DNA of 64,000 nucleotides from assembly GCA_050084515.1 (NCBI GenBank), contig CM114271.1, forward strand, positions 8,556,001 through 8,620,000, written 5' to 3'. A program made the position numbers and the translations under genes. Below, piece after piece: positions 12,359 through 57,195 of this stretch. The notes below the pieces were generated by a model that saw only the letters and a list, made by a program, of their open reading frames with translations, was not told the origin of the DNA and did not search any database. How positions within the stretch are numbered: position 1 is the stretch's first letter; each line of letters starts with the position of its first letter. This stretch comes from Blasia pusilla (lineage: Eukaryota).

Positions 12359-13290
12359 CGAGTGTTAGATCTCTTTGGAGGGATTACCACCGGGTTAGCT
12401 GTTGTTTTTCAGGTAGGAGTACAAGTGCAGCAGTACCCGTATGTGGAGAGTGATGATGTTGCAAGGCGCATCTCACTACAACATGTGGCGCAATTACCAC
12501 TATGTTTTCCCGACTTATTGTTTGCGTACATGGTACAGGGGATCCAGAGTTCCCTACCAAGGGATATTTCGTTGTTGGGGGCGCAGGACTTAGACCGATT
12601 AGGCACCATTGATTTGGTCATTGCCGGTTGGCCATATTAGGGCGAATCGAGTCTTGGACGAGGCAGCGGGTTGGCTAACACTCGGTCCAGGTTGTTTTGG
12701 GTGATGTTGAGGGTTTAGTCTCATTCTCCATCCTATATTTTGGAGAATGATCCGATCTTAGGAGACTCCATGTCACGGGTGGTAACGAGTGCTCATCAGG
12801 TGCATGACTGGATCGGCCCAGCAATGTTCTTGGATGCGGCGAGTGTAGGTTCTAGAGCCCATCGCCCGCGTCTATGGTGGACCAACTTGGTGTCCCATGC
12901 GATGTTACGGAGGGCGTATGCGAGAGTGGAGCGCCCCTCCCATTTGTTAGTGGATTCCATTCTGGATCCAAGTCTTCGCTCACAAGCAGTGAGGCACGAT
13001 GATCGGCCACCATTGACTATGGTCAACAGGGTAGGCAAGCCGCAGGCAGCCTTTCCAACGTTTGTGAGTTTTCCCGCTTCTTATGCATACAAGGAGGCTG
13101 GTCTTGGCTTGGTTTGGGATGACCACGTTCAGAGGTTGGTGGAGCCCAACGCCGACGAGAGAGAGCGGGCGATGGGATTTCCCACAAGAGTGACGGCAGT
13201 ACCGTCAGTATCAGAGGCATCACGACGCCATGTCTTGGGTCACGCGATGGACCTGAACAACTTGACATGGATCTTCAGCTTGGGAGTGGC
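12359..13290 (+). pseudogene. DNMT3-like DNA (cytosine-5) methyltransferase domain within gypsy pol
   Basis: Motifs in order: I LDLFGG (12365); II YVE; III DI; IV IDLVIAGWPY*G (degenerate WPCQG, 12626-12643); VI YILEND (12743); VIII AHRPRLWWTN (12857); IX ERAMGFP (~13163); X RRHVLGHAM (~13222). Confidence 0.9.
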
Positions 13291-13611
13291 TGAGCAACGT
13301 CGGATGAGATCGCGACAAATCACAACAGTTGTGTTGGTGAGCCCCATGCCTATCGAGACGATGGAGGCAGTGGCTAGGGGCGAGACCCGAGGAGATCGAC
13401 ACACCAGGGGAGATCAAGAGAGACACCCTTGGACTTCTTGGGATGTTTTGCAGGTACGCCAGGAGATGAGAGCGTGGTTCCGGGCACTGCATGTGGAGGA
13501 GATCAGAGTTTGCATTTGGCTGAAGGAGAGCGGTCGAGTGTTGTTGTTCGAGACGGGGTCGCACCATAGCAACCACCGATATCCGCGCCGGAGAGTCCTA
13601 CCGTAGTCACG

Positions 13612-15040
13612 ATGGAGACTTGGGAGCCAGATATGGGCCCAAAGTTGACAGGAGGAGAGCGGCGCCGAATACATGAGTTCCTCTGGAGTTATAGGAGTTG
13701 CTTTGCCTTTAGCATGGAGGATTTGGGTACGCTGAAGGGACTAGGGATCCGCATTGAGTTGTCGAGTGATACGCCGATCTTCCGAAGACCCTACACGTAT
13801 AGTGATATGGAGAGGGCTGTGATTTAGAGTAGGAGCCAGGACTTGGTTGGAGCAGGACTAGTGGAGATGTCGGATGGGGAGTATGCATCTGCCACTGTCA
13901 TGCCCGTCAAGAAGGATGTGCATGGCAACTGGACGGATATGCGGATGTGTGGGAATTATCAAACTATCAATCGGCAGACGAAGTCCGATAGGTATGCCAT
14001 GCCCACCCCTGAGGAGATCTTTGATACGATTGGTCATGCAAAGGTTTTGATTCATTGATTTATGAGCCGGATACATCATCACCGCACTATCGATTGGAGG
14101 ACGAGCGTAAGACGGCATCGATCCTCAGGGGAAGGATTGTTTGTACCACTGGCGATTCTTACCATTTCGGTTCAAGAACGTCCCGGATGAGTTTCAAAGG
14201 GTCATGGATAGGATCTTGGCTGGTGTGGATTTTTCTAGGTGTTATATTGATGACATCGTAGTCTTTAGCGCCACGGTTGAGGAGCACGAGCGACATCTCA
14301 GGAGGTGTTTCGACGATTGCAATTACATGGGCTGAAGCTACATCCAGGCAAGTGCAAGTTCTTTTACGACTAGATTGAGTACTTGGGTCATACAAGATAC
14401 CCAATGGGTCTTGGTGTTCAGCAGACAAAGGTAGAGGCTATCTCACGCATTCCACGCCTACAGATATGAGCCGTGTTCGGGCATTCATGGGATTGGAAAA
14501 CTTCTATCGGCGGTACGTCAAGGGATTCAGTTCAATTGCGAGGACGTTGACCTTGCTGACCAAGGTGGATCACGAGTGGCACTGGGGAGATGAGAAGGAG
14601 TGAGCATTTCAGTTGCTCAAGGACAGGTTGACGTGCGCACCCATCTTGAGGAGACCAATCAAGGGGCGTCCTTTCCAATTGCACCCATATTGGAGCATGT
14701 TGGGGCTTGGAGCGGTGCTCACCCAGCATGATGATGAGGGTAGAGAGTTTGTGGTGGCTTACGCTAGCCGCTCAAACAATGTTGGAGAGGTGAAGTATAG
14801 CTCGTATGAGGGTGAGTGCTTGGCTGCGGTGTGGGCTATCGCGCATTTCAGGTGTTACTTATTCGGCAATCCCTTTACCATCATCACTGATCATCAACCA
14901 CTAAAGTGGTTGATGGAGTCCGACAAGCTTACAAGGAAACTTGCGAGATGGGCTTTGTGATTGCAGGATTATGATTTTTAGGTGGTACATAGACCTGGGA
15001 TGCTCAACCAGGATGCATATGGGTTGAGTCGTAACCCATG
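13612..15040 (+). pseudogene. Gypsy RT and RNase H (family M), frameshifted
   Basis: YASATVMPVKK, MRMCGNY, LPFRFKN, CYIDDIVVFS; LGAVLTQ...YSSYEGECLA...TDHQPL. Confidence 0.93.
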
Positions 15041-15379
15041 CCCGAGTCAACAAGATGCGATTGGAGCTCGATGGCATGGAGAGAGTGATGAGGATTCAGT
15101 GCCAGGATGGCACGCGTCGGCCTATTTAGGCATGTTGGCTATGGAGAGCCAGAGTGTGGAGACTTCAATGGCGAGGTCTAGTGGAGAGTCCAACAGATGG
15201 CCGAGATGTTCATGATGATGGAGTAGTCTTGGAGTGCCTTCGTACTGGCAGCGTTGCGAGCACCGTGGGTGCTAGAGAGCGGGATCGGATCCTACAGCGG
15301 GCCAGACGGTTCCGTTGGGAGGGGACACATGTTTTGGGGGTTTGGGAGGATGGAAAAGTACGCGTAGTGCCGTATCCTT

Positions 15380-16500
15380 CGCATAGAGCACGACTAGTGC
15401 AGCATGCCCACGAGGAGTTGGATTACTTTGGGATGAAGCGGACGTACAGCTTGCTCCAGATTCAGTATTGGTGGCGAGGCTTGCAGACTGACGTTCAACA
15501 GTTTGTTGCCAGGTGCATGGTGTGTGATCGGGTCCGAGCATCGTTCAATGCTCCAACTCCACAGTTGCATCCATTACCGATCTTGGGCTTAGGGTATAGA
15601 TGGAGATTGTATTTTGCAAGACCTTTGCCTTTGACGGAGCGTCACAGTCGTTATGTGTTGGTGATGGTCGAGCACTTCTCGAAGTGGATCGAGTTGGTTG
15701 CATTGCTTGACAAAGCGAGTGAGGGAGTAGCTTATGCCTTCCTTGAAAGAGTGTTGAGTCATTATGGCGCACCAGCTGAGGTGTTGACAGACTAGGGTAT
15801 TGAGTTTTGCAGTGAGTTCCAGGCCTTGTGTGATCAGGCGTTGATCGACCATCGCACGACTTTGTGAGATCATCCTGAGGCGGATGGATTAGCGGAGAGA
15901 GTTGTGCAGACCGTGAAGAGGGGTTTATGCAAGTATGGCTTGCAGAGAGGTCACCTAGGAGATTGGGACCTCCAGTTGCCCTGGTTGGCGATGGGATACA
16001 GATTCAGCATGCAAGCATCCTTAGCGTCTTTTTCCCCATACTTGCTACTTTATGGCTGAGAGCCAGATTTACCTGCAGCCATTCGTCGAGATGCTGGTGA
16101 GGTGTTGGACCTTGATGACCTAGATGTATGGATACGAGCATATTCTCAGAGGGCTAAGTTGTTTCGGAGAGTGATGCCCATGGTGTTCGAGAACTTGGCG
16201 ATTGCGCAGCATCGAGATACGTTGAGGTATGCGACTATTCGGGATGGTGGTTATCGACCAACTATCTCGAGGTTTCATCAAGAAGATTATGTCTACTTGC
16301 AGCAGACGGCACCCACGACGTTGGATGTGACTGTAGGGCGCACTATCTTGAGAGTGCATGACGTTTTTCCATCCAATGTTCTCTTGCTGGAGGGACACGA
16401 TGGTATGGTATGGAAGGACCATGTGCGTAATTGTGCGTCATGTCACCTTCCTAACATTGATGGTACAGTAGATCCGAGCTTAGCAGTAGTTTCTGCAGGC
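15380..16500 (+). pseudogene. Integrase (family M)
   Basis: H...YWW...CMVC zinc finger; VMVEHFSKW; VLTD; HPEADGLAER. Confidence 0.9.
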
Positions 16501-16647
16501 TTGCGTTGTATGTTGTGTGGTTCTGCCCGTGGTACAGCCACGATGCTAGTCCGTGATGGATGTTCGTGAGGTTGGCGTATGGCATGTCTGACGCCACCTC
16601 TCACTAGGATTCCTCGGGGACAATGGATGTGTCCTAGATATACATAG
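16501..16647 (+). pseudogene. C-terminal PHD finger of pol, degenerate
   Basis: Read through TGA: CMLCGSARGTATMLV(R)DGCS*GW(R)MACLTPPLTRIPRGQWMCPR(Y)T*, which has C4HC3 spacing and the PHD L.PPL..IP.G.W.CP signature. Confidence 0.85.
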
Positions 16648-16833
16648 AGGAGATACTAGGTAGGTTTTGATTCCAACTTTTTCTGTGATATGGATGACAG
16701 AAAGGCGACTAAGGATGGGGCCACATGAGCACCCGGCCTTCTTGCTCTTAGCGTCCGAGAGATGTATGTCATGGTAGGTAGGGATAGATGGCTATCTGGA
16801 GTTAGAGGGACCTAACCACCAGCTAGGGGGGCG

Positions 16834-17601
16834 ATTGGAGATATTTTAGTACTTCTTGTCTCCTTATTTGGATGCCATGAGTTAGCATGGGATCGTGTGT
16901 GTTTGTGTGTGTGTTCGGTGACAGCGATGTATGTTGTGTAGCAATGTGTATGCGCACGACAGTTGTCACGTCTAGGATAGATCGGTGAGATCTAGTAGAG
17001 CGCCTTCGTGAGTAGTGGAGGACACACTCAATAGGTCGAGGATGACCTGTTGAAGCCCCGAGAAACTTGAGAGAGCAGGTTTCCCCTTCGTTTTGGCTCA
17101 TTTGGAGTCATATTGAGGAACTTACTATTTTAGGTAAGTACCATCTTGAGTATATGATCGACTTTGTATTTTTGGTAAGTGGCCCTTGACCTCCTACATC
17201 AAGTCAAGAGCCAAGGAGGTGACTTGGGAGAATAGGTTATCATGGAGAGAGCTTGCCAGAGGGGAGGGGTATACCTCAAGGAGAGAGAGCTTGAGAGCTC
17301 ATTCTCTGTTTGTTGAACTTCTTGGCATGAGGCGGCGGAGCTATGGTCCCTTGCCTTGTGAGTGTAACCCGAGCCTCTCATTAGGAGAGTGGGTTTGGTT
17401 TAACATGAGAGAGAGTGCACACCTTTGAGAGCTATGGTGTGAGATGGTGTAGAGAGAAATTGGATCTTACTTTATTGGAGATATTTTAGTACTTCTTGTC
17501 TCGTTGTTTGGATGCCATGAGTTAGCATGGGATCATGCGTGTTTGTGTGTGTGCTCGGTGACAGCGATGTATGTTGTGTAGCGATGTGTATGCGCACGAC
17601 A
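16834..17601 (+). repeat. 3' LTR (16964-17601) preceded by a 128-bp duplicate of its own 3' end (16834-16961)
   Basis: Near-identical 128-bp direct repeats at 16834-16961 and 17474-17601; junction GACA-gt-TGTC. Confidence 0.8.
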
Positions 17602-19290
17602 AGGACTTAGTAGGGAACTCTGTCTATAAAATTCAGAGGCTTGTATGCTTTACAGAGTACCACCCACTTCACCAGTGGAACGAGTTTTCTTACACAATCT
17701 TGTTGCGCAATATCTCCTTCAAATATGAGTCCAAAATATTGAGTCTTGTATCACTAGCATGGACTTACCTGCATGAGTGTATTCATAGGAAAATATTCCG
17801 CCATGAATCATGCATTGTTGATGAAATTCAAAGGCATGCAACTTGTAACCTTTGGACCCAAGTTCATGCCACTAAAATCATATCGAAGGCAATGGAGGTT
17901 ATTGGACCTCATATGAAATTTGAGCTATGTATTAAGTCCATTCCTGCTGTTAGTACACCATCTACCCAAGAAGGCAGAACCAACAAGTTTACAAATGAGC
18001 CAGATCTTTCACTGCATTTATTGAATGTTGAACAACATGATCTATACCATAAGATCCAAGATCTATCCTCTGGTTTAGTGTTGATCACCGTCCCACCAAG
18101 TTGTGGTAAGACATTCTTTACACATTTCATGCAGTCATACTGGTCGAGTCTCTTTGTTCCCACGTTGCTCCCTGCTACAACAGGAATTGTTGCACTTCGG
18201 CTGCACAACACTGTTGTCACTGTTCATTCAGCATTTGTTATACCAATAATGGGCGACTTACCTTCCATGCATACAACCTCAGACCAATACATGTGCTTAA
18301 GAGACGCAAAAATTATCATTATAGATGAGTGTTCCATGCTAACGCCCCGCATGCTACAGATTGTTGCCCTAAGGTTGCATCAGGTGTCTCCGTCATCCAG
18401 CCTTAGCCCTTTCTTGACTAAACTTGTAATCTTATTAGGTGATCTCTGCCAGTTATCCCCCATATGCCGCCACAACAAAGGCCCTATCTGCTATTTTTGT
18501 CACATTTCTTCCTCACCATTCTACCCTACTATGGAAATATATACCCTTGCCACACCAATGAGGCATGTTGATGACCATGAATTCCTAAGTTTCTTGTCTC
18601 ACATATGAAGGGATTTACAAACAAAGGACTTGATAGATAGTTGTCTTGGTAGGTGCTTTGTTGATGAAAATACCGCCTCTGATTATATAGGCAAAAACAT
18701 TCATATTATTTGTACACACCGTATCGATGTCCAATTATTCAACCTTATTGCACTTCGCATACTATTTGGCGCAGTTGAGATCTTCCCAATACATGTAACC
18801 ACATATGCTCCTCCCGATCCACACTTTAACGAATGGATATCCGATACTCAATTTCATGAGTTGCAATTTTTAGCTATTGGTTGCACAGTATTGCTCACAA
18901 CAAACATTGACATGCCAAGTCAAGCTACGAACGATGCACAAGCTACCGTTCTAGATTGTACGTACAAACAAGATGACCTTATTGCTATAATAGTGAGCAT
19001 CCACTCAAGCTGCGCTACTGTCCGGCTTACCCAAACAATGTTTGCTACTCTAAGATGCGGAGCCAACGAGAAATACCACAAACATACATTTTCCCTAGTT
19101 CTTGGCTATACCATGACAAGACACAAGAGTCAAGGCCTCACAATCAAAGGCAAGTGCCTACTCAACATCAGATCATCGTTTGCACCTGGGCTAACTTATG
19201 TAATGCTATCTAGAGTCCAAAGTAGGTCACAACTACAAATCCTCGGTAACCTACACCCTGAGGATTTCAAGGTCTTTAATCAGCAGAGTC
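17602..19290 (+). pseudogene. Helitron-type PIF1 helicase relic
   Basis: Degenerate Walker A (VPPSCGKT), ATTGIVA..TVHSAF, IIIDECSML, LLGDLCQLSPI, MRH, TRHKSQGLT and YVMLSRV in ORFs 17571-18608 and 18630-19508, separated by a stop; upstream YTILL...TYLHEC resembles the RepHel linker. Confidence 0.88.
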
Positions 19291-22200
19291 ATGGCAATTG
19301 TTTAGTGGGTGCTAGAACAATGGAAATCAAAGATGGTTCACTAAGAAGACGTGCAAGGATGTCAAGTCTACCAGCTAGCGCCTCATCTGTACCAGACATT
19401 GTTGGAAAATTAAGTGCGACACCACATTCTGCTCCCATCTTGCTTAGCGATAGTGGTTCAGATGATTACCATAAGCCTACTCTGAATATGCAAGGTGTTA
19501 AGCCATAGTTTGATCAACACATTCATCAAGAGACTTAGGTTTGTACAAGCATTTCTGTGCAATAATTATGTTTTCGGTGTTATCAATAGGCTGAACTGAA
19601 AATAACACCTTCAGTTACCAAAGTCCTATCGACTTTGCAAAGATGATACTCGATGACATGCCTACCTTACCCGAAAAGCCCACTGTTCAATTTGTACCAC
19701 CAACCGATGCACAACTTTGATATGCAAACAACCTTGGGTTATACCACTCCCATTATTATAGAGGAATCACAAGCCGTCTCATTAGCCACATGATAGACCA
19801 ACGCAAATCGTGGGCAGCTTCATTCAGGGAATTAAGAACGCAGCCACTAGTCACAGGTACTTATTTCACTCAACTGCTTTTTAGCTATGTTGTTGTAAGA
19901 GCTTTTTCTGTGCATCTATCTAAATTTCTCTGACAATATACTACGCACACTCAGGGATACAAAAGGAGATCATGGCTCACAAGCTGGGTTGAGTTCAATG
20001 AATCAGAGCTTACACACCAACAAGTTGTAGTAAATTATGCAAGATTTACTTGAGGAATAAAGCCCGATCAGTTCTAGGATCTTTGTGTTATCATGAAGCT
20101 CCCTCTTGAAATGTTGATAAGTCTGTCGTCCGCAAAGACTGCCCACCTTCTTGACAGTATAAAAATAGCCCGGGAAGCTGGAGCAATTTCTGAGTACCCA
20201 TCTGATGCAACTTAAATTTTTCCTTCGTCACATTCAACTTCTTCTTCACAATATACAGATGATCTCCTACCTGTTCACTGTCTCCAGCCTCATTTTTATA
20301 GCGAGGGCACTTCATACCAAGGTTTGAAACTGCCAAAATCGCCGAGTAAACGACAGTGCCTTTGACAATTATGTGGCCATGTAAGTGTAAATTGTAAAGG
20401 TGATTCCACTTATCGCCTCTCTGCTCTTCTTCTTGAGACACTTACTTTCGCTCTAATTCTCACCCATTTATTGTATTTCATTGTTTGAACCAGGTATGCA
20501 ACTTCGGCAAGAAGAATTCACAAAATCCTCACCAGTATTGAACCTTGCTTGCTTTTTGCTACGCTTTCTTGAGAGGCAGATCCTCTCTCTCCATGCATTC
20601 AGATCCTTAAATTTTCATGCTCAAGTGCATGAGTCATTTTAGAAGTCGTTACATGGCTAGGCATTGTCTTAGAACTGATTCTGCATTATATGCACACCTA
20701 CATGGTGTCCAATTTTTGCTACCCAATTTCGGTCATATTTTGCGACATGTGTGTAATGTGATTTGCAGTGGTTGTTCCTACATGCTGAGCCCATCTCCAG
20801 CCTTGGCAACTTCTATGCAAGCATATGTTCATTTTCATGAATAAAAACCCCGTTGTCATTGTCTTGTTTAACTGTGTGCACTTTACTTTTTCAAGTACGT
20901 TAATTTCCTGTCTTGAGTCTTCATTGCTTCATGTGCTATACAGAAATGCACGACTGGTGTTTAATCACATGTACATCTTCTATTCGACACATGTTTGAGT
21001 TTAGCAGCATATACACATTTTCCATGTTACTTCCCACTTGTCTTGTGATGTTGTTTTACAAGGGAAAAACTGCAGGCGGAAGCCAAACAAGTACCTACCG
21101 TACTCCTGTCTCGCACAACAATGCAACTCGCAACAGACAACGAAATCGACGCCGCTCAATCAACATAGAGGTTGAGCTGCCAGCCATGGGCGACCCTATA
21201 TACTGCAGCGATAGTATCCCAATATCGTTATTTGATGCTGTACTAAAAAAACATAGGTATTGTTCAAGATCGCCTAGATGAATCTGAGGAACATAATGAT
21301 ATTCTACGCACTGTTATGCATTCGGTAGCGGATGACGGCAAGTACAATGTAGAGTAGTACCAAGTCAAGTCAGTTCAGAAAAAGCTACTCCTACTTCAAA
21401 AACATTTCCTGGACAACTATAGTTGTAATTCTGACCTCCATAGCTTTATTTCAGATTTGCAAGGCTTGTGTGAAGGCAAGAAGCCTGGTCCTATGTAAAA
21501 ATATAGTTTCAGCATTGTTGCTCATGCAAAAGTTAGCTCTCCTTCACTTATGTAGACTTATGTAGACTTATACATACGTTCATAATTGTCTATTCCTCTC
21601 TAAATCTGTGGCTGCCGAGTATGCCGTCAGGTTCACAAACTTGAGATACTTGTGGCTAGTGCCACCATGTTATCTTCCATGTGTTTTTGAGTATGAGCTT
21701 GCCTACATAATCTGAAGCGTTTACAGCTCATCTGATGTTCTCGTGCAATGCTAGAATGTTTGATTACACCACAACCTGTTGCGTGCCAATCATCTCTGTT
21801 TGTTTGCCTTGGTTTTACTTTGAGATCTGCTTACTTTACTTGCAACCTTTGATTTCATAGAAACCACTTGCACACATTCCACTTTATACACACATTTAAC
21901 AAGCACTTTGCAATCATCATCTTACTGAACTTAATTGTTGGCTTTCACATGTCGGCCTGTAATAGCTATGTTTACTAACAATAGATTGCATTTTTATAAC
22001 AAAGCTTGCTCATTGGTTGCATTGCACAGTGTGCATTGCCAGGCCGCATACTTGTGAAGGATCGGTTTGTTTCGCTGCATTATTCGTTAGAAAATTGGTC
22101 TGGTCACAAGGGTGAGGTTGATACGACCACTCACACATGCAATCCGGCTCGTCAATGGATAAATGTCACCTAGGGCCAGATCGCATGCATGGCCTCACGG

Positions 22201-23748: not shown

Positions 23749-23857
23749 CTGAAGGAGACAATTCAGGACGTACTGTTAGAACCCGATGCTAGAATCAGGT
23801 GGTAAAAAAAATTAGGACACAATCGTCTAAAAATTTACTGATACTTGGGGGAAGTAC

Positions 23858-24033
23858 CTGTGCTGCTGCAGAACTATTCCCATTCTTCAGTATATTTTGT
23901 GCTGTCTTTCGAGCTTCTTTAAGGTAAGCCTTTAAAAGGGGCACAGGCTGCACACGATCCATAATTCCGAATGAATGGGCGAAAGACAAAGCTTCAATTT
24001 GTTTGCCTTCTTTGGCCAACCTGTCCACCACAT
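23858..24033 (-). CDS. FRL: FRIGIDA-like protein, exon 2
   Basis: AG/GT boundaries with consistent phase; DVVDRLAKEGKQIEAL...PVPLLKAYLKEARK. Confidence 0.92.
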
Positions 24034-25990: not shown

Positions 25991-25999
25991 GCGTCGACA

Positions 26000-30179: not shown

Positions 30180-30205
<26 letters not shown>
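28880..30205 (+). repeat. Diverged LTR fragments related to the family M LTR
   Basis: 28900-29240 and 30030-30190 resemble 17030-17420 (gggtatacctcaagg...ccttgcctt...gggtttggttt). Confidence 0.65.
29793..29869. repeat. (GA)n microsatellite, ~38 units; a shorter one lies at 30180-30205
   Basis: Direct reading. Confidence 0.98.
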
Positions 30206-32399: not shown

Positions 32400-35300
32400 G
32401 GTATATTCTAGCACCTAAAAGGAGAACCTATGGGCAATAACCATGAGTTTCCCCATGAGAGGGCTAGGATGATAGGAAGAGCGGAAATGTACGATTCACA
32501 CTTGAGATTAAGGCATGGAGACTCTACTATGACCCACGTTACATGTCATGGACTAAGCCATTTCTAGCTAAGGAGGAGGATTCTTTGCAAAGTTGCAAAA
32601 GATCTACCAAGGGATATAGATTGAGAAGTTTTCGAGCATCCATGAATTTCATAGGCACACGGGGGGAGATTCTACGAGAGGCATTTACTTGCCTACGTTA
32701 GTTGATTACTGTCACTCAAGGGGTGACAGAGGCCTCGGCCGTCCAACCATTGTATCGAATGCTCGAATGAGATATACGAAAATGGGTGAGGGATGCAATA
32801 CCCATACTACCCACCTCACCTATGTTGAGGGATATCTTTGACATGGCTAAGCATATTGAGCGCAACATAGCGGAGGAGAGTGTAGTACCTATGAGTTACA
32901 CGCGAGAGTTGCCACAATTGCCTATAATATTAGTGCAACAATGTGTATCTTGAGAGAGGAGTATGGTGCCACGAGCTCATGGAGGTTATCAAGAGCATGT
33001 GCCACAATATTATATATGGTGCACCTATGTTATTGTATATGGGTCAGTAATAGCCATGAGTAATTTTTGGGCAAGTGGTGGACTCCATCACCAGCAGGAT
33101 TGCACCCGTCAGGATAAGGGACACGTGTCCTAACTCGCAATAGTAGATGGGCCCCCAACATGAGTATTTGAGTGTGACCTTTGTCAACCGTAAGGTTATA
33201 TGCATGCTAGCATCATATAGCTCATCCTTTACTTCATCTAGCTTCATCCCAAAGCACTCACAAAGTTAAGCTTTGGAAGCGGAATACTTAGATTGCCCAT
33301 TCCGTAGGTAGCCAAGAAGCCGCCCAATGCTAGCGCTAATCGGGTCGAGTCTCCCAAAGTGTGTGACATCTCCCTAGAAAGCCTCTTCCTCAAGCCTTGA
33401 CCAATCTCCCCAAGTTGCTCATCTGAAACGAAGCACATAAATTAATTCCTTAAGGTGAGTCCCTTAGCTCAAACTTGAAACACAACCAAACCCGCATCGC
33501 GGTTAGTTCCTAGTTCAAGGGCTTACACGGGTAGGGAAGGAGAGTGTCCCCCCCATAGGTTATTCTCAAGCTCTCAGGGAAAACCCCACCTTCCCCTCGA
33601 GCCCTTGATTTTGGCCCTCAACCCAAACATTGTTCACGATCCACAAATCAGTGTTCGACTAGTTACCCATCAAGATGGCTTGGCGGAGGCTTCTTACAAC
33701 TTATGCAACTCTTCGCTCTCCAAATGCATCTTAGAGCTTAGACCTACATTTCATTTGTCTCATGGCTAGTCCCCATATTGACTCCCCATTTGGCATCTCA
33801 TGGTTGTCTTGCCGCCCTTTTCGTTTCGTGACTAGTCTAGTGGCATCTCACCAATCTTGACTACTCATATGTTCCTTGCTTCCCGTCCTTGACTTGGCGT
33901 TTGGCTCCAAGTTCTAAAGAATTTATTGCCTTGTCTTTTTCCCTACAAGTAGCTATGCCTCTTTCTCACCTAAGGCCAGTCACAAGACATGTGCGCATCT
34001 CACCTAGTGTTAGTCGCGCGGTTGGTTCAACCGCCCTTCTTAGTCTCGCGACTAGCTAGTCTAGGTTGTAACTTTGGTGGGTCACACCAAAGTCTTTCCT
34101 CCTTGGACCAGAAATCATGACTCACTTTCCAAGTCCCCGCTTGTGTAGGCATCAGAGACTTAGCTATTTGCGAGGGCTAGATGTTTTAGCCTACATGCAC
34201 CTTGAGCTATGTCCAAATTGTGGACCAAAGATAGCACCATAGCGAGTTGACGGTACGCGAGGGACCATAGGTTGTGCGCTTGGTGGTCCTATAGGAGGAC
34301 AAGGAGTTGGATTTTTCTATAGAGGAGGTGGATATGCCCCATGTAGGAGGTAGAGTTTTGCCACCTAAATGAGTTGAGGGAGACTCATGGCATAAGGTTG
34401 GGATGGTTGCTCAAGTAGAGCAATTACAATAGTAGATTTCCACAATGGTGTTGAGATTACCTAATGCCAAGTCAATGGTATTGACCTCATGTGGACCATC
34501 CAAAGACATGGAGGATCGTGTTTGGATGTGTAGGGTTGCATAGATGGAGGCAATTGCTATCGTTACTCTTGGAGAAGATGTAGAGTTGGATCCATAGAGA
34601 GGGAAAGCCGAAACAGACATGGATTCCTCAATTATTTACTTTGTTAGAGGCGATGAGGACCCCATCAGTTAGAGTTCCAAGATGGAGATGTTGTTGGTGT
34701 ACATGCACGATGGACATTGGGAAAAGCAATTGCGACGACTACTATTATTGATGCTCAAATGGAGCCCGTGTTGAGTATGTTAATGGGGCGGCCATTGCTA
34801 TGCATCATGCCCTATGGTTTTCAGCCTTTGATGTTTTGACATTGGGAGGTGCGCTCATCAAGGTTTTTTGGTTGGCCGCTATGCTATGTGAGCATGAAGA
34901 TGGGGTTAATACCTTGTGTTCAGTGGTAGTTTGAGAGGAGATTATGGAGTTTCCCTTGGATTCGGTGTTTGGACCGTGCACCTCATATTCATGGTAAGAT
35001 GAGACTGCTAGGATGGCATAGATTCCCACTAGACTTGCTATAGAGCATGTTATGGTTTCTCTAGATGTTATCTTGTTAGTTAACCAGGGAGAGATCTTCC
35101 ATTTGGTGAGTCCAAGAAGTATAATGTTTGCAACATGTCTTGTTGAATTTGAGAGTGCAACCCATGATGTTGGGGAAGGCGGCATTAACAAGATTAGGCC
35201 TAACAAGGGCCGATGTGGAGCATTTCCCATTCAACATATATGTAGATATCCTTGGATGAAGTGACTACAAAGAAATTTATCAATCCACATGAGATCATGG

Positions 35301-35993
35301 TGAGGATTTGACCTCGACATTCGTTATATCAGTTCGGGTGCAAGCCAAGGTGTTAGTGATCGCTGCCAAGTCCTATGACATCCTGATTGGTGGAGAAATT
35401 TTGTATCTTGTGGGTTTCATCCCAGATTACTAGGAGGAGTCCAAGTCCAAGAGAACAAGATATGTAGCAGTTAGATAATGGGCGACTTGCTCATTACCAA
35501 TCCGTTTTACGAATGGAGTGATTGAGCAACGACCAAGAGAGGTGGCGACTATGGAAACATTCAATAGCACCATCATTTGGCATGAGTATTTGATTGAGGG
35601 GCATGTCCATGCAGAGGACACACCCCTGACTAAAACCACTGTAAAGGGGAGTATTATGGTAATTGCATCATTTCGTGGAGGGGAGGTACCTTTGTGGGGC
35701 TCAAGCAAGGAGCTTGGACGCCTAGTTGATAGGCACTGGTATATTGCTTGGAGTTAGACCTTTGCACCAGATCACAATGGATCAGAGGAGCCCAAGGTAG
35801 CAAGGACTCTTACGATTTCACCCTTGGACTCCGCACTGATTGTGGGATGTATCCCAAAGGAGTAAAGTAGAGTGTTGGATCTCTTTGGAGGGATCAACAT
35901 TGGATTAGCTATTTTTTTGTAGGCAAGAGTGCGTATCCAACATTATTTTTATGTGGAGCATGATGAGGTTATAAGGCACATCTCACTTTGATA
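32400..35993 (+). mobile_element. Family M copy 2, 5' half (gag, protease, start of MTase), with an LTR-like insertion at ~33205-34165
   Basis: Collinear with ~10080-12480; YLIEGHVHAEDTP; RVLDLFGGI at ~35870. Confidence 0.85.
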
Positions 35994-42519: not shown

Positions 42520-44794
42520 GTTCAAAGACCCTTTAATGTATCCAAATTAGGAAAATTAAATGCAAAATAACTCTATGACTCCTAAGGAATTGATGTATCT
42601 AGGCTGATCTCCTCACGTCAAGTCAAGGTTCATATTTGGCTCCTAAGTTAATATCGTACTTCTATAGGACTCTCTATCACAAGTGGTTTGGTTAGTATGG
42701 TGCGATCCTATCTCAAACAATAGAACTCGATTACTCCCTTATTGCCGTGGGCCTACTCCCCTTGAACGTCAATCTCTAGTGTTGCGGAAGCGTATGTTGA
42801 GTAGGACATGCTCTCACTGTTGAGCTGCACCCAAACACACTCACGTTAGTTTGATTTGGTTCAATCAACCTTCCAACCCACCAAGTTCTCAACTCAACAC
42901 TTCATCAAGCTTAAACTTCATAGTTCCTCAGTTCCCAACACAGCCAAGTCTTCTGAGACTTGGGACACACTTTATGGATAGTCCGGGCATCTAAAACGGC
43001 GCCTACATGCGTAGCACTCCCAACTGTCCAATAGATCTTGCATAAGCCCCTAACAAAGATCCACTTAAGTGAGTTGTAGGTTTGAATCCAAAAGTGGCCT
43101 CTAAAATCCACTCTATTGGACTTGGTTCGCGTTTCGAATCCCAATGCCAAACTTCCGATCCATTTTTTGCCCTTGGTTTGCCCTGCGGCGCCCCAAAGTG
43201 GTGTTTGAGTCTCAAGCATTCTTGGACACCTTCCCCCTTAGTAGTACTTGTGGGGCTCTCCGCCCTTTCCCTATCTTTTGAGAAAAGACTCTCAAGCCTT
43301 GCTTTTTGGCCCTCAACCTAACTCCCCATACCATCGTCTGCAGGTGGTTTCTCAACCTCTTATTGTAAATTTGCTAATATCTTTAAAGCATTGGAACTGA
43401 ATTTGCATAAGTTTTCCAAAAATATCTTAATAGTCCCAAAACCATCTTGGGACTAAAAGTTATGGTCCAAAATATAGTCAAAACCCCAAACGCTAGTCAC
43501 ATTCTAAATCCGGTTCTCACCTCTTTAGCAACCACTCTTCCTAAACTCAGCTCCTCACAAGTCTTGCTCATATTTGGTTGAGTTTTCCTAATTGTGACCA
43601 TAGATATATGAAATGCTCAACCTTGTTTGTGTCTCAACCTTGTTCCTCCAATGCCCAAACCATCATAGTGTGAGCCCACTAGAGTGTTGATGTTCCGCTT
43701 GGCGCTCGTTTGGTTATAAGGGTCATGACACTTGTAGCCAACTTGGACATATGATCTCATATTGCTCCTCGATGGGTAGGACCATTAACCATGCTCGTTG
43801 TTTTGGTTTTCATCTCTATTTTGGTGTACATGCAACATATCCCAAGAAGTCCAAGGGTGTATGTCCCACTTACCTTTGATGTATTGATGTCTTCGGATCT
43901 CACCCCTAGCCACTTCCTCAACCATCTTTGTAGGCATGGGGCTACCAAATGCAAAAGAAGTAAGCTATCACAATCGTATCCAACAATACTCAACTACTCC
44001 TAAGCTGAGAATCCATAACAAGTAGTTATGGTCCATCGCATGATCCAAGACATGATGTTGGGATGTCTCTGATAAAAACAATATTGCTATCACTCTTGTG
44101 GTGAACCCCATCGCCCACTCTCTATCATAAGCGTTGGGCTCCACCAACCGTTGTGCCTAGTCATCCCAAAACAAGCAAGCACTTATATGCAGAGGAAGCG
44201 GAAAAATTGACAAACTTTGGAAAGGCTATGCGTGACATGCTAATCTTGTTGGCCATCGTCGATACAATTTGATTATTGCACCTCATTTCTTGTGATCAAC
44301 GTTTTGGATCCAAAATGGAATCCACCAAAAAATGGAAGGGACGCTTCACTCTTACATATGCCCTCCTCAACATCTTGTGTGGCACCAAGTTGGTCCACCA
44401 TAGACACACGCGGTGTGCTCGTGAACCACACTCGCCGCATCCAAAAATATTTTTGGGTTGGTCCATGCAAGAATATGATGTGCACTAATCACCACTCGTG
44501 ATTAGTGCCCAAGATGGATACATTCTCCAAAATATAACGTGGAGTGGGATTGATGTTTTTGCTAATGCCGCAAGATCCTCATCATCTCCCAAAGAACTTG
44601 GAGTGAAGTTAGCCAAACAACCACCTCATCCAACACTTGATTAGCCTTGACGCGGCTAATTTAGAATGACCAAATTAATGGTCCCTGTCCGATCCAAGTC
44701 CTACAACCCCAACAAGAAATATCCCTCGATATGGAACTTTGATAATCCTATACCACTGAGACAAGAACCGAGTCAAGAAGTTGTGCCACATATT
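42520..44794 (-). mobile_element. Family M copy 2, 3' half (MTase motifs III-X and RT start), inverted
   Basis: Reverse complement is collinear with ~12480-13745; contains PRQG (44644-44655) and YILENV (~44519-44536). Confidence 0.85.
42743..43730 (-). mobile_element. Family A solo LTR
   Basis: TG...CA termini; TSD CTTAT/CTTGT. Confidence 0.85.
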
Positions 44795-48976: not shown

Positions 48977-51081
48977 TCAAAAAATATATTCATATATACC
49001 TAGAGAAATCATCGTTAAAAAAACAAAGTACCGGCAACTACTAAGGCTATGTTGTGATGTTGTCCACACATCAGTGTGAATCAACTCCAATATCTTGGAT
49101 GCTCTTCTACCTTGCTTTGGAAATGGAAATCTAGTTTGTTTCCCAAATTGGCAAGCAGGACAAACCTCTAACGTAACAAGACTCGCTAATTTAGGAAGTT
49201 CTATTACTATACTAGATAATGAAAGACTCAGTAATCTTTGAAGATTCATAAGCCCAGTTCTCTTATGCCACATTTTTAGATCTACGACTTGTTTAAATAT
49301 ATGTCAGTTTGACCATACACTGTTGTTTGAATCGCTACTATAGAAATATCTAATTTGAATATTATGCCAGATCTAGTTACTTTGGTTGACATAGTATGGT
49401 CATCCATTCTTTCAACGAAACAACCATTTGCGTTCAACTTCACTTGATAACCATGTTTTCTATCTCTAAAATAGAGATCAAATTTCTTGCAACGGTAGGA
49501 ACATAAAGAACATTTCCAATAACGCAAAGACCATTTGATGCTATTGGAACTTTATCGATATGCATGATATGATGTTGAGTATCATCTCATGTAAGCACTA
49601 TTGTAGGATCTTTGACTGGCTCCATACTACTTAACCATTTAACTTGTGAGATCATGTAATTTGGTGCACTAGAGTCAATGTACCAAAGAACTGTCAAGTC
49701 TTCATTGACAATTGTTCCCATATGTTGACTCATGACCAAAAGGTGCTAAGTTTGTAAAAGTTGATCTTCTTAATACTGCCCTTGGTGTTGTTGCTCCACA
49801 TAGTTTTGTTGTTGGAAGGCTCATATTCTCATATCTACCATCTTTTTGAAGAGAAACTTTTATAGTGATTCTTTATCCCACAGTAATTACGAGATCCAGG
49901 GACCCTCCGTTGCTGACCTAAACCCTAACGGTTTCCATCATCACCACCTTATGATTATGTTTGGTATTGGTTTGCAATTGATTGAGTGAAGTTATGTTGA
50001 GCGGCTCTTCCTCCATATGCTTGATATCCTCCACGACCATGAAAGCTTCTATCACGTCCTTTCCCTCCGTTTGATCCATTACATGCAAATAGGCCACTCT
50101 CTTGCATACTAGATGAGGTACCGCTGCCTACTAGGCACATGTCCTCACTAATTAAAAGTGGGACTAACTCTTGAAAGGTTGGATACTTCTCTCTCATAGA
50201 GATAGAGGTCTCAAAAGACTTCTTATCCTTTGGAAGTCCTTGAAGAGTGAACAAAACTATATCATAGTCTTCTACTTCCACTCCAATGCTATTCAACTCA
50301 TCAACAATATGTCTGATACTCAACATATAATGATTGATGCTTTGCAATCCTTTCCTCACTTCATTCAATTGCTCTTTCAATCGAAGCTTTTTGCCCTTTG
50401 TAGATATTTGGAATAACTTTTCTAACCCATTCCAGGCCTCCTTCGGAATATCAACATCTTGAATGCGACCAATGATCGGCGAACTGATCGTTATTGAAAT
50501 AAAATGGATTACTTGCCTCGTGTCTTATGATTACCCTAGAAGCGTTAATTCCAAGCGCGAACATTCAAGTCTGTTGAGTCACCTTTTGGTTTGGCCTCAT
50601 GACCTGTAATAAGATCCCATAGTTCTTAACCCATGAGAAATTATTTCATGGGAAACTTTCAAACATTGTAATTCTGCTTATGTAGCTTCTCACATGTGAT
50701 TGCTCTTGAGGAAAGTTCCATGAAAAATGATTTTATTCGAAAAGTATCATTTCAAGTTCTTCACTTTCTCCAAGTGAAACAAAGACCTCTCCTAGAGAGA
50801 AATAGACCTCAAATGTTCCAAAATTGATCAATTATATGGAAGAACTAATCAAGATGGGCTTGTAGAGAGCAAGTAGCACAACTTTCATTTACTAATCATA
50901 CTTTCAAACATAAAAATTGCTATTGCAGGAGTTCGGAAGGTCAGAATCGAGTGATTTTGGATGCATAGAAAAGCTCTCAAAGAGCTATAAATAATATTTA
51001 GAACAAGCCTTTGACATTTTTATAACTTTCCTGGATCCAGATTGCTAAACTGATCGAGGAAACCCCAAAAAATACCTCCAA

Positions 51082-52098
51082 TGTCGTGACCCTCATAACC
51101 AAACAACACCAAATACGCGCCAAGCGAAACATCAGAACTCAAAGGAACTCACGCCGCGAGGTTTGCGCTTTGGAGAGGCGTTTGGAAGAGTCTCTTGGAA
51201 AAGTCTAAGAGACGAAACGTGGAACAGAGGTGTGCGTTTCATGCGTTAGTGGTCGCGACCAGGAAACCTAGACCAAACGCGAGCCGAGACTTGAGATGAG
51301 TTGAGTCTTGGAGGTTGGTTGCCAAAGAGGTGAGAACCAGTTTGGAACATGACTAGCGTTTGGGAGAATCTGACTGTGTTTAGGACCATAACGTTGAGCT
51401 CCGAGATGCGTTCGGGACAACTAAGGGCGCGTTGGAAAGCTGATCTTGAGACGCTTCCAACGCACCAAAGATCTCAGCAAACGCATAATTACAGGCTGAG
51501 ATATTGGCCGAAAATGATTCAGAGAGCAATCGGGTTGAGGGCCAGTGGAGGGGCCCGGTGTCTTTCCTAAATGTAGGGGGCCCCGGAGATCCCCAGAAGT
51601 ACTAGTAAGGGGAGTACCTTCTCGAGATGTCTCGGGAAACGAAACCCCACTTTGGGCGCCAAACGGCGTTTGAGGCACGGATGAAACGGGAGTTTGGCGC
51701 GGAAACCCAAACCCAAACCTGATCCAAGGAGTGGACTTTGTACGCCACACTTGGATTCCAACCGAGATTCACTTCATGCGAGTCTTGGTGAGGAACTCAT
51801 TGGATGTTCATCGGACGATTGGAACCGCTAAGCGCGAAACGCCGTTTCAGTTCCCTGAACCGACTGAAAAGTCATCCCAAGTCTTTCGAGACTTGCCCAT
51901 GTTGGAAAGCTGAAACTAGGAAGGTTGAGCTTGAAGAGAGAGTCCGAGACGAGAACTCGGAAAGTAATTCGCTGATTGATCCAAGACCCGACTAACCGGT
52001 GCGTGTTTGGATGCGGATCGGCGTTGAGAGCGTGACCTCATCAACGCACGCTTCCGCAACAAACAAGATTAACGTTCAAGGAGAGTAGGCGAACGACA
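51082..52098 (+). mobile_element. Family A solo LTR, youngest-looking copy
   Basis: TGTC...GACA termini; perfect TSD TCCAA at 51077-51081 and 52099-52103. Confidence 0.95.
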
Positions 52099-52695
52099 TC
52101 CAAAGTCTTGTCACCGTCATAGCTCCACCTGAAATCTTATGCTATTAAGCTCTGATTGAGATTTTGTTCTCCAAACCATAAATTATGCCTTATCTTGCCT
52201 CTGTTCTTTTTTGAAACACCGAGAATCTCGATTGATGTTCTCCTATTGCTTTGATACCAAGTAGAAAACTGTTAAAGAAGCATAAATAGTGGAATATGAC
52301 TCTCACACTCACACACCACCAAGGAGAACGAAATTTTGCAATGAGAGAATGAGTGGTTCCCTTCTCAATTATATAAGGTATGTACAAGCTATCCTAACCC
52401 TAATCCTAACCATAGTCTTGAGTTAGACTAACTTTGATTAAATAATATTAGTTAAGATAATCACGCTTAACTGACTAATCAAGATTAAGTTTCCATACTT
52501 CCTTTGAGTACCAATATAGCAGTTCGGGTGTTTGATGAGCTTGAGTATAGTTCATTCTTGAATCCGCCTGTAATACATCGTCTATCATGAACACAGGTCT
52601 AAGATCCATCTAACTATGAATATTAACATATTTACAAATGAATGACTAGACAACCCCAATGCATTGGGGTTGTTTAGTACATTGTGTACATTGTG

Positions 52696-54418: not shown

Positions 54419-54477
54419 AATTCTAACAAAGAATCTTATTATTTACCTTATCTGTAGTCGGGAGAAACCCTTTGGAC

Positions 54478-55333
54478 TCACCGAGTTCTCAACTCGGCAG
54501 TTCATCAAGCTCAACCTTCCTAGTTCCTCACTTTTCAAGATAGGCAAGTCTTACGAGACTTAAAACATACTTTTTGGAGATTCCAAGCATCTCAAATGGC
54601 GTTCGTCCACCTGGCAGTCCCAACTATCCAACGGAACTTGCATGAGCCCCTAACCAAAACCCACTTAAATGAGTTCCAGATCGAAATTCAAGAGTAACCT
54701 CCGAAATCCACTCTATTGGACTTTGTTTGGGTTTTGAATCCCAATGCCAAACTCCCGATCCATTCCGTGCCCTTGGTTCATCCTACGGTGCCCCAAAGTG
54801 GGATCTTGGTTCCAACCACTCTTGGAGATCTTCCCCCTTGCTAGTACTTTTGGGGTTCTCTAGCCTCCCCCTATCTTTTGAGAAAAGACTCTTGGGCCCC
54901 TCTTTTAGGCCCTGAACCCAACTCCCCCTATAATCATTTTGAGGCAAGTTTTCAACCTTTGCTTAGATATTTCATGCATTAGAATTGGCTTTGGATAAGC
55001 TTTCTAACGCCATCTTACTTGTCCCAAACTCATCTTATGACTCAAAGTTATGGTCCAAAATACAATCAAAACCCTAATGCTAGTCATATTCCAAATGCGA
55101 TTCAGACCTATTTGGCAAACACTCTTCCTAGACTCAACTCTTCTCAAGTCTTGGTTCCCATCTAGTTTCTTAGTTGCAATCATGAAGGCATGAAATGCTC
55201 AACCTTGTTCACGTCTCATATCGTATCTCTCCTCCAAGCTAAGAAACCTCCCAAATTCTCAACCATCCTAACGTGAGCCCACTAGAGTTTTGATGTTCCG
55301 CTTTGCGCTTGTTTCGCTATGAGGGTTATGACA
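54478..55333 (-). repeat. Family A LTR, truncated at the left end
   Basis: Homologous to ~42880-43730; ends gagggttatgaca. Confidence 0.85.
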
Positions 55334-55351
55334 CTTAAGGACCAAGATGGT

Positions 55352-56372
55352 TGTTGTGCGCTTACTCTCCTTGAACGTAAATCATTAATATTGCAGAAGT
55401 GTGTGCTTAGTAGGACATGCTCCCAATCCTGATTTGCCCCCAAACAGGCACTCACGTTAGTCGAGTCTGGGTCAATCAGCATTCTAACTTGCCAAGTTCT
55501 CCACTCGGCCTCTCATCAAGCTCAACCTTCCTAGTTTCGCGGTTTACAACACATACAATTCTTTGAAGACTTGGGACAAACTTTCTAGTCGGTTCAGGAA
55601 CCTCAAATGGTGTTTGAATGCCTAGCGGTTCCAATTGTCCAATGGACATCCAATGAGTCCCTAGCCGTAAGTCAAGAAGATGAATCATAGTTGGAATCCA
55701 AGTGTGGCTTACGAAATCCACTCCCTTGGATCAAGTTTGGGTTTCGAGTTCCAACGTCAAACTCCCGTTCCATCCCGTGCCCTTGAGATGCCGTTTGGTG
55801 CTCAAAGTGGGATTTGTGTTCCAAGTATCCATGGAGGGACTCCCCCTTACTAGTACTTTTGGGGATCCCCGCCCTCTCCCTAAAGTTAGGGAAAGACAGT
55901 CAGGCCCCTCAGATTGGCCCTCTATCCAACTGCTATCACAATTATTTACGGCCAATAGCTTAGCTTGTACTTATGCATTTTCTAAGATCTTTGGTGCGAC
56001 GGTCTTGGCATAAGCTTTCCAACGCATTATTATTTGTCCCAAACGCATATTGGGAATAAAATATGGTCCAAAAAATAGTCAAAATCCGCAAACACTAGTC
56101 GTGTTCCAAAATTGGTTCTCATCTCTTTGGCAACCAATCTTCCTAGACTCAACTCATCTCAAGTCATGGTTCACGTTTGGTTCAGTTTTCCTGGTCGTGA
56201 CCACAAATGCATGAAATGCATAACTCTATTATGAGTTTCGTCTCTTGGACTTTTCCAAAAGATATCTCTAAAAGCCTCTCCAAAGCGCGATCATTATAGC
56301 GTGAGTCAACTAGAGTTATGATGTTCCGCTTGGCACCTATTTGGTGTTTGTTTGGTTATGAGGGTCACGACA
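55352..56372 (-). mobile_element. Family A solo LTR
   Basis: TG...CA termini; TSD ATGGT/ATGAT. Confidence 0.88.
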
Positions 56373-57195
56373 ATGATAGTCTTGTGATGGACACATTAGA
56401 TCATTGCCACTACAGTTTAGTGGTGGTGTGATCGAGCGACGACCTAGAGAGGTGGTGACCTTGGCCTGATTCAACAACGCCATCACTTGGCCAAGATATT
56501 TGATGGAGGGCCATATTCATGTAGAGTACAAGCCTAAGGGTAATACTTCTATGGAGGGGAGTGTCATTATGGCACCATCCCATAGAGGAGAGGTGTTGCT
56601 ATGGGGCTCGCTTTAGGAGCTTTGACCGAGTGTGAATAGGAACATACTGACAACTTGGAGAGAGGTTCACAAACATGGTCAATGGAGCTTGACGTAGTTG
56701 GAAGTGCTTTATCGACACCCTTGGATACCACCATGATTGTGTGGGGAGTCTTTGAGGAGGGTGTGCGAATGTTGGATGTTTTTGGAGGGATCAACATTCG
56801 TTTGATTGTTGTGTTGCACAAAAATAATTGTGTGCAAAAGAACTTGAATGTGGAGCATGACTACGTGGCAAGTCTACCTTCAACAGGTTGCTTTGTTGAG
56901 GCAACGATTTCTTGATCTCTTGCTTGCTTTAGCTATGCAGGGTTACTAGAGTTCCTTACCAAATGACATCTTATTGTTGGGGATGTAGGATCTCGATTAG
57001 GTAGGCACCATCCATTTGGTAATTTCTGGTTGGCCTTGGCCAAGGTCAATCGAGTTTTGGATAAGGGGGTGGCTTGGATGACCCTAGGTCGAGGGTTTTT
57101 TGGAAGATGGTGCAAATATTGTGTCATTTGTAGAAGCATTAACCTTGGTCTCTAGCATACATTCACGAGAATACATTGTTGCTGGATGACTCTAA
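56373..57195 (+). mobile_element. Family M copy 3 fragment (protease-MTase linker and MTase motifs I-VI)
   Basis: ORF 56655-56915 TPLDTTMIVWGVFEEGVRMLDVFGGI; tggccttg(g)ccaaggt = WPCQG with a 1-nt insertion at 57031-57046; YIHENT at ~57158. Confidence 0.85.

Follow-up and report, generated by a model that had tools for sequence, protein, structure and literature searches.

Decayed copies of a Ty3/gypsy-type retrotransposon family with a DNMT3-type DNA methyltransferase in Blasia pusilla

The locus

A stretch of 64,000 nucleotides from Blasia pusilla (GenBank assembly GCA_050084515.1, contig CM114271.1, positions 8,556,001 to 8,620,000 of the forward strand), called the window below, carries three mutually related retrotransposon pieces that include a DNMT3-type cytosine-5 methyltransferase (MTase) region and share 66-72% nucleotide identity. 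The window is repeat-rich streptophyte DNA, with copia and gypsy debris, a FRIGIDA-like gene and an open reading frame (ORF) for a PIF1-like helicase. All three copies belong to one Ty3/gypsy-type family in which the MTase lies between the protease and the reverse transcriptase (RT), and every copy in the window is dead and without function. A preliminary description of this DNA had already counted three copies, and this count holds, with the parts 2a and 2b forming one insertion. The main features, in window coordinates, are as follows.

10006..17601 (+): copy 1, nearly full-length, 5'-truncated and dead (frameshift-aware alignments to the homologue P0005 and the intact relative L047; Pfam RNase H and integrase)
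11637..11660 (+): protease active site of copy 1, LLDSGVQP, aligned to LLDTGAQP of P0005
12341..13382 (+): DNMT3-type MTase domain of copy 1 (PDB matches, alignment to P0005)
12368-12394 (+): motif I of copy 1
12623-12643 (+): motif IV of copy 1, WPY followed by a stop
12737-12754 (+): motif VI of copy 1, END (ILEND)
13151-13180 (+): ERERAMGF of copy 1
13567..13575 (+): in-frame stop with the read-through context TAG CAA CCA, between DNMT and RT, at the same position in L047 and L046
13615..16636 (+): decayed RT, RNase H, integrase and C-terminal PHD finger of copy 1 (alignment to L047, Pfam)
14604-14957 (+): Pfam RT_RNaseH of copy 1
15130-15792 (+): Pfam Integrase_H2C2/rve of copy 1
16834..17601 (+): 3' split direct repeats of copy 1, B1 at 16834-16961, A2 at ~16962-17473 and B2 at 17474-17601
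32581..35993 (+): copy 2a, with gag, protease, linker and motif I, ending at the 5' end of an inserted repeat, R, that resembles a long terminal repeat (LTR)
43822..44794 (-): copy 2b, the remaining MTase of copy 2, inverted relative to 2a, with motif IV as a stop followed by PRQG and an intact ENV
56373..57205 (+): copy 3, a fragment of 833 bp that takes in the linker and motifs I, IV and VI and is truncated 5' by an R repeat

Domain order and repeat layout

Copies 1, 2a, 2b and 3 were each aligned to P0005, an intact homologue, with a frameshift-aware protein-to-DNA aligner. In copy 1 (11298-13382), 370 of the 687 aligned residues are identical, and because so many match this intact relative, the stretch can be taken as true homology rather than a chance resemblance. 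From the C terminus of the DNMT to the PHD finger, copy 1 agrees with L047 at 694 of 1209 residues. Its gag region has three frameshifts and one stop when aligned to L047, the stretch 11298-13382 has four breaks (a stop at 11361, a shift near 12330, and stops at 12638 and 12716), and 13412-16567 has five frameshifts and 11 stops, the natural TAG excluded. Frameshifts at ~12330 and 13412 flank the MTase domain; the former, between linker and motif I, had been placed before motif I by the preliminary description, and it appears both as a passage from frame 3 to frame 2 in tblastn and in the frameshift-aware alignment. The nucleotide alignment also places a 21-nt deletion in copy 1 just ahead of motif VI.

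The order protease-RT-RNase H-integrase, with matches to RT_RNaseH and Integrase_H2C2/rve, is that of a gypsy-type element and is found in copy 1 and in the intact relatives L046 and L047. At the 3' end of copy 1, B1 and B2 are 95.3% identical over 128 nt and enclose about 512 nt, which gives the B1-A2-B2 part of a DIRS-like split-repeat arrangement with A1 missing. The full A1...B1-A2-B2 layout is present in the relatives L031, L069 and L074, and relatives have A1/A2 direct repeats of 290-340 bp plus the B repeats. An LTR search found no LTR pair around copy 1 or in L046 and L047; copy 1, whose 5' end is missing, shows neither the LTR pair nor the target-site duplication of a gypsy insertion. 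The ancestral element had the order gag(CCHC)-protease-DNMT3, an in-frame UAG in a CARYYA context, and RT-RNase H-integrase-PHD, with DIRS-like split direct repeats around these parts. A piece resembling A1 also lies upstream of copy 2a, at 30039-30188, and matches 17265-17415 at 83.7%.

The PHD finger stands at the C terminus of the integrase (PF00628 in ORF2 of L046 and L047 and in several database relatives; L047:8053-8226), and copy 1 has a decayed version at 16500-16636 (+). Many gypsy elements have a chromodomain at the same place, and the PHD finger may be a chromatin-targeting module. Upstream of copy 1, direct repeats of 1.2 kb (5898-7078 and 8771-9977, 86.7% identical) end about 30 nt before its first recognizable gag residues; they have the look of LTRs from a different element that has taken the place of the 5' end of copy 1, and weaker versions of them lie at 3287-4014. 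Downstream, the PIF1-like helicase ORF (17562-19505, +; E 2.3e-15) starts within the last nucleotides of the 3' repeat of copy 1, is followed by an ORF of 299 amino acids (aa), and is possibly a Helitron-type element.

Class and conservation of the methyltransferase

Read through its stops with X, copy 1 scored 14 bits (E 0.033) against Pfam PF00145, below the cut-off of 22 bits, and Pfam found no MTase on the separate ORF pieces of copy 1. The intact relatives pass this cut-off (L047 51.1 bits, L046 46.2, L069 37.8). The MTase class was decided by PDB sequences and by a profile built on intact relatives. The best PDB match of the copy 1 domain is the catalytic domain of DNMT3A (E 4.7e-8), and the profile of intact domains matches DNMT3A at E 3.4e-21, DRM at 1e-12 and bacterial M.HaeIII at 2e-8, with an alignment that is collinear and not permuted. 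For an AlphaFold2 (AF2) model with a predicted local distance difference test (pLDDT) score of 76.1, the top Foldseek matches are DNMT3A/3B (E 2.9e-16, template modelling (TM) score 0.62-0.78). By these sequence and model comparisons, in which DNMT3A/B/C rank first and DRM next in collinear alignment, the domain is assigned to the DNMT3 class.

Copy 1, read through its stops, matches at least 103 database proteins, the best at 62% identity. Among the matches listed, those with names come from the liverworts Calypogeia, Marchantia and Riccia and from Sphagnum. Relatives are numerous among annotated Marchantia proteins, where they are labelled only 'hypothetical'. Many database proteins hold protease and DNMT in a single ORF, and longer relatives (at least 32 proteins, or at least 45 with a profile) add gag CCHC, RT, RNase H, integrase and PHD, and extend the named sources to Closterium, Cymbomonas and Chlamydomonas eustigma. 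Metagenome contigs hold at least 455 relatives, of which 80 loci were kept; an ORF of at least 700 aa occurs in only three of these 80, the family being mostly decayed in metagenomes too. L046 and L047 are intact, with gag-protease-DNMT followed by RT-RNase H-integrase-PHD; in L047, ORF1 (1369 aa) comprises an aspartyl protease and DNA_methylase, and ORF2 (1047 aa) comprises RT, RNase H, integrase and PHD. A more distant clade (L069, L072, L074, L077-L079), at 32-36% identity to P0005, has DNMT, RT and RNase H in one ORF without an in-frame stop.

Between L046 and L047, the ratio of nonsynonymous to synonymous substitution rates (dN/dS) is 0.11 for the DNMT, 0.17 for the protease, 0.055 for RT and 0.03 for the integrase, values that are rough since dS is near saturation (1.1-1.5), a point that also counts against the reading put forward here. 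The motifs of cytosine-5 MTases are found in the family, namely motif I (FxGxG), PCQ and ENV, with F, G, E and N invariant. Of 73 database homologues that include motif IV, 70 retain PCQ; in the window, every motif IV is broken. From motif conservation and selection, the ancestral DNMT was probably catalytically competent.

The three copies compared

Motif IV reads TGG CCA TAT TAG GGC at 12629 in copy 1, TAG CCG CGT CAA GGC at 44658-44644 (-) in copy 2b, and TGG CCT TGG CCA AGG T, with one extra G, at 57031 in copy 3. These readings agree with those in the preliminary description, as does its remark that the motif is broken differently in each of the three copies. Motif VI is likewise as it had been given, with ILEND in copy 1 (12737-12752) and an intact ILENV in copy 2b (44533-44518); copy 3 has IHENT, and ENV survives only in 2b. 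It had also been held that copies 2 and 3 run from the linker into motif I in one frame. This is right for copy 2a in that 35131-35986 is free of frameshifts, though stops lie at 35755, 35863 and 35920, and it does not apply to copy 3, in which the frame shifts at 56695 and 56862 within 56655-56915, with the end of the linker and motif I in the continuous stretch between the two shifts. Over their full alignments, copy 2a (34800-35986) has 10 stops and one frameshift, copy 2b (44762-43901, -) has nine stops and six frameshifts, and copy 3 (56380-57203) has nine stops and three frameshifts.

The claim that three decayed copies reconstruct an intact MTase, for which an open frame in their consensus had been suggested as a check, proved too strong. 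All three copies cover only 127 of the 358 MTase positions, while 225 are covered by two copies and six by one. Two codons remain stops in a three-way majority, one at reference residue 450 (CGA/TGA/TAA) and one near residue 476 (TAG/CAA/TAA), the latter in the nucleotide alignment that places the 21-nt deletion of copy 1. In formal terms, then, the naive consensus retains stops and goes against the claim. Both majority stops are C>T changes at CGA or CAA and are common to conflicting pairs of copies (2b and 3, and 1 and 3, respectively), so at least one of them is a parallel hit. There is no MTase position at which all covering copies carry a stop, and the pattern of majority stops does not argue for a dead ancestor. 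As judged from sequence comparison, the ancestral intactness of the MTase is established by the relatives and not by the three-copy consensus. The wider proposal, that through repeated transposition the ancestral coding region included an MTase that was fixed, translated and probably active, finds support, and it is again the relatives that are decisive (protease and DNMT in one ORF, dN/dS, and PCQ).

Insertion and decay

That the copies arose by separate transpositions rather than with shared flanks, as had been proposed, is upheld because they cover overlapping parts of the element, lie in different flanks and have their closest relatives in one another. Copies 2 and 3 in particular include a common part of the element, and nothing outside R is common to the flanks. 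When 2a, 2b and 3 are compared with copy 1 and with the 80 metagenome loci, copy 1 gives by far the best nucleotide match for each.

Copy 2 is one insertion that was split by a nested insertion and whose 2b half was later inverted. In element coordinates, 2b starts where 2a ends (copy 1 ~12480-12484), and the two overlap by 4-5 nt (GATA/AATA). Copy 2a adjoins the 5' end of R and 2b its 3' end, and the two R halves are complementary (~20-380 and ~398-985); the short duplication and these complementary halves indicate a single insertion. The R halves are parted by a further element with 310-bp LTRs, and copy 2b is bracketed by inverted repeats (40832-41780 and 46430-45452, 85% identical). The preliminary description had taken 42520-43821 as element sequence; 42743-43723 is instead the unrelated LTR-like repeat R, and copy 2b ends near 43822. 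R measures about 985 bp, has TG...CA ends and occurs in at least seven pieces of 67-77% identity.

4151-5109: R piece
35994-36367: R piece, at the end of copy 2a
42743-43731: R piece
44797-45414 (-): R piece
51079-52102 (-): R piece
54476-55336: R piece
55356-56372: R piece, cutting the 5' end of copy 3

R stands twice in tandem ahead of copy 3 and is inserted in or beside the DNMT copies at three different places. A site resembling a tRNA-iMet-type primer-binding site (PBS), with one mismatch, lies at 4137-4148 (-) beside an R copy. The element inside the R copy that splits copy 2 spans 5.45 kb (36373-41823) between direct repeats of 310 bp (36373-36680 and 41513-41823, 85% identical) and has an exact TGGTATCAGAGC PBS at 36684-36695; related pieces lie at 45452-46430 (-) and 48962-52563 (-). 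A PBS pattern search gave five matches against 5.4 expected by chance, and the single meaningful one is the exact match at 36684, which lies beside an LTR end and belongs to this different element. Also within copy 2, about 980 bp (33200-34182) separate gag blocks that adjoin each other in copy 1 (10662/10674), by insertion in copy 2 or deletion in copy 1.

Private changes number 68 in copy 1, 95 in copy 2 and 147 in copy 3; in copies 2 and 3 the three codon positions have nearly even shares of them. The analysis used just these totals and codon positions, as three-copy polarization is unreliable for copy 1: the T>C and A>G changes counted as private to it probably reflect C>T decay that struck the other two copies in parallel. 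GC content is 0.53 in copy 1 versus 0.44 in copies 2 and 3, the observed-to-expected CpG ratio is 0.73 versus 0.37-0.55, and CWG sites number 29 per kb versus 5-13. Losses of this kind are what the deamination of methylated cytosines would be expected to produce in plant repeats under silencing. After insertion, selection was lost, and the copies decayed by GC-to-AT transitions at CG and CWG sites, which is the signature of host silencing by 5-methylcytosine, and by indels, nested insertions and the inversion in copy 2.

In three RNA runs labelled with the same species, 197, 252 and 253 reads matched copy 1 at 95% identity or more, with the first mate mostly on the minus strand. Because most of these reads are 95-99% alike and show consistent differences, they are assigned to paralogues and not demonstrably to copy 1, and they hint that younger members of the family are transcribed.

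The in-frame stop between DNMT and RT

The intact relatives have a stop at the position of the copy 1 stop, TAG CAG TTA in L047, where it is the single in-frame TAG between ORF1 and ORF2, and TAG CAA TCA in L046. The stops of copy 1, L047 and L046 all fit UAG followed by CARYYA, which a review (PMC5382211) describes as the context of type I read-through in plant RNA viruses. An RT start is present in 55 sequences. In 36 of them a TAG or TAA with CAR-YY-N directly after it lies 14-22 codons upstream of the RT match, five of these (copy 1, L046, L047, L049 and L015) having the strict CARYYA, and 13 have some other stop; these counts are not independent, which lessens their weight for the reading given here, the 80 loci coming from few metagenomes and being probably paralogues of few genomes. 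ORF1 proteins that are independent database entries terminate at the same place as the in-frame stop.

The 'polyprotein' of the preliminary description can be kept in part. The DNMT does lie in one coding product with Gag and protease, but the conserved in-frame TAG (13567 in copy 1) parts it from RT. As the sequences suggest, the DNMT would be the C-terminal part of a Gag-protease-DNMT product, made in abundance, and RT-RNase H-integrase-PHD would be made only upon ribosomal read-through of the UAG. The DNMT itself would have been a de novo enzyme, its most plausible target being cDNA of its own element or fresh insertions, an idea also put forward for the DNMTs of other retrotransposons.

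Other features of the window

The FRIGIDA-like host gene lies at 23212-26002 (-) in at least two coding pieces (PF07899, E 9.7e-64 and 8e-16) and is the only clear host gene seen among the repeats. Remnants of copia-type gag/pre-integrase and two more gypsy-type RT/RNase H/integrase remnants lie at 48980-50524 (-), 3-1253 (-) and 62905-63961 (-), the gypsy-type ones without any DNMT match. The region 58000-60000 is AT-rich (GC 0.295), with internal direct repeats at 58353-58728 and 58699-59060.

Discussion

The DNMT3-carrying element is a real feature of this DNA, and it belongs to a kind that has already been described. We consider it very likely that the window holds three independent, long-dead insertions of one green-plant Ty3/gypsy family with a DNMT3-type cytosine-5 MTase, together with the read-through and de novo methylation proposed for the ancestral element. 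Several observations weigh against this reading. Copy 1 has no 5' repeat or target-site duplication, copy 3 is a bare fragment, and integration is directly shown for no DNMT copy; the 4-5-nt duplication belongs to the repeat inserted in copy 2 and not to the DNMT element. The window by itself is no proof of an open ancestral frame, given that a strict three-way majority keeps two stops. Between the window copies, dN/dS is 0.29-0.50, but these values come from protein-guided alignments, are biased downwards and mix old constrained divergence with neutral decay. In 31 of the 36 stop contexts the last base is other than A, mostly as CAACCC, and six of the 55 sequences (the L069 clade) are without any stop, their DNMT being fused to RT, so that read-through is not universal in the wider family. 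Finally, enzymatic activity, read-through and methylation are all three things that we infer.

The copies could in principle be segmental duplicates of one copy that was already dead. Two stop positions are each common to two copies, and both 2b and 3 adjoin repeat family R. However, the two shared stops pair the copies in conflict (2b with 3, and 1 with 3) and are C>T changes at CGA/CAA with at least one parallel hit, R meets the copies at different element positions (~12480 and ~11953) and in different orientations, no flank similarity extends outside R, and copies 2 and 3 are the most divergent pair (310 differences at 753 sites), all of which makes this origin very improbable. Even less credible, to the point of being negligible, is the notion that the MTase stretches are pseudogenes of host DNMT3 genes that merely lie beside retrotransposon debris. 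Bryophytes do possess host DNMT3 genes (de Mendoza et al. 2018, PMC5890265), and host DNMT3A/3B are the best matches among solved structures, but the order protease-linker-DNMT-RT and its junctions recur in all three copies and, elsewhere, within single ORFs that are intact, introns are absent, and hundreds of relatives have the same neighbours.

The ancestral DNMT might have been conserved without being catalytic, as a DNMT3L-like cofactor or a structural or targeting module. Catalysis in this family is a prediction, PF00145 matches only in part even in intact relatives (profile positions 2-120 of 324), and the AF2 model is weak in the part equivalent to the target-recognition region, with pLDDT below 50 at 183-189 and 254-267. 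Set against this, there is little or no variation in motif I (LFGG), PCQ, ENV or the C-terminal RERAMGF / GQAMD, the DNMT is under the constraint noted above (dN/dS 0.11), and retrotransposon DNMTs are reported to methylate CG de novo (de Mendoza et al. 2018, PMC5890265); we therefore give the non-catalytic alternative a low probability. Somewhat more room, though still well on the unlikely side, must be left for a bryophyte-type element that captured DNMT3 independently of KnitGypsy-Dnmt3 of Klebsormidium, so that their likeness would be convergence. Retroelements gain DNMTs recurrently, the 2018 paper places the acquisition 'in the K. nitens lineage' (PMC5890265), and no protein named Klebsormidium is among the database matches listed, which counts for little as matching needs shared 5-residue words. 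Nevertheless, the same unusual set recurs in both, with gypsy-type domains, a non-permuted internal DNMT3 and DIRS-like split direct repeats (PMC5890265, legend of Fig. 4c), and relatives extend to charophytes (Closterium) and chlorophytes.

A Gypsy element with DNMT3 was published in 2018 for Klebsormidium nitens as KnitGypsy-Dnmt3 (de Mendoza et al. 2018, PMC5890265), and the family in the window resembles its published description in several respects. Both have gypsy-type domains with a non-rearranged internal DNMT3-type domain and no introns; both have evolved under purifying selection, with a published Ka/Ks below 0.2 compared to 0.11 between L046 and L047; and the published repeats are called 'the same as that of a DIRS retrotransposon', to be compared with B1-A2-B2 in copy 1. 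In the present family, the position of DNMT3 inside a gypsy-type coding region is seen in the window itself, and the purifying selection is read from the relatives, the window copies being decayed. The present family differs in being found in liverwort- and moss-type genomes plus further green algae. In addition, the main text of the 2018 paper contains neither 'PHD' nor 'readthrough' and mentions no in-frame UAG between DNMT and RT. A 2026 preprint lists 'streptophytes (Gypsy-DNMT3)', citing the 2018 work, and where a 2025 paper refers to Gypsy-DNMT3 it likewise cites only that paper. We found no bryophyte or liverwort report of such elements in the open-access literature. What the present family adds to the known kind is its host range, a putatively leaky stop, a PHD finger and split repeats.

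Other systems share single features with this element. SymbioDIRS-DNMT3 and SymbioLINE-DNMT of Symbiodinium also carry a cytosine-5 DNMT in a retrotransposon coding region, with de novo CG methylation reported for retrotransposon DNMTs (PMC5890265), but they are of different classes, with a tyrosine recombinase in the former and a LINE in the latter, whereas the present element has a DDE integrase and a gypsy-type RT_RNaseH. Host DNMT3A/3B and plant DRM are the closest to the element DNMT in fold and sequence (DNMT3A E 3.4e-21, TM up to 0.78), and the domain is collinear with DNMT3 rather than permuted like DRM. Unlike host DNMT3A/3B, it lacks PWWP and ADD domains, lies inside a retroelement ORF and is only about 21-23% identical to them by structural alignment. 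Type I read-through in tobamoviruses (PMC5382211) offers a parallel in that UAG followed by CARYYA fits copy 1, L047 and L046, and in that the stop parts an upstream product from a polymerase. The present element is, however, a retrotransposon and not an RNA virus, most of its decayed relatives have CAACCC, and read-through is here a prediction.

A broader view, which we hold only tentatively and would not yet call probable, is that Gypsy-DNMT3 elements form one old green-plant clade, from chlorophytes and charophytes to liverworts and mosses, with split repeats and an integrase PHD finger, and that in one subclade the MTase came to lie upstream of a leaky UAG, being made in Gag-like amounts while the polymerase is made rarely. 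If this is true, the element would be specialized in supplying bryophyte cells with a de novo DNA methyltransferase, and could mark its own cDNA or disturb host methylation. Retrotransposons that bear the very enzyme normally used for their silencing are rare, and in the open-access literature the record in print for the green lineage consists only of Klebsormidium. The copies described here and their relatives show that such elements were once active in land-plant genomes of bryophyte type, and they make the published idea of lineage-specific acquisition testable. Counts of DNMT genes in bryophytes may be inflated by element-borne copies. Furthermore, a conserved UAG-CARYYA stop that puts the DNMT in the upstream product amounts to a testable statement about how much MTase such an element would make.

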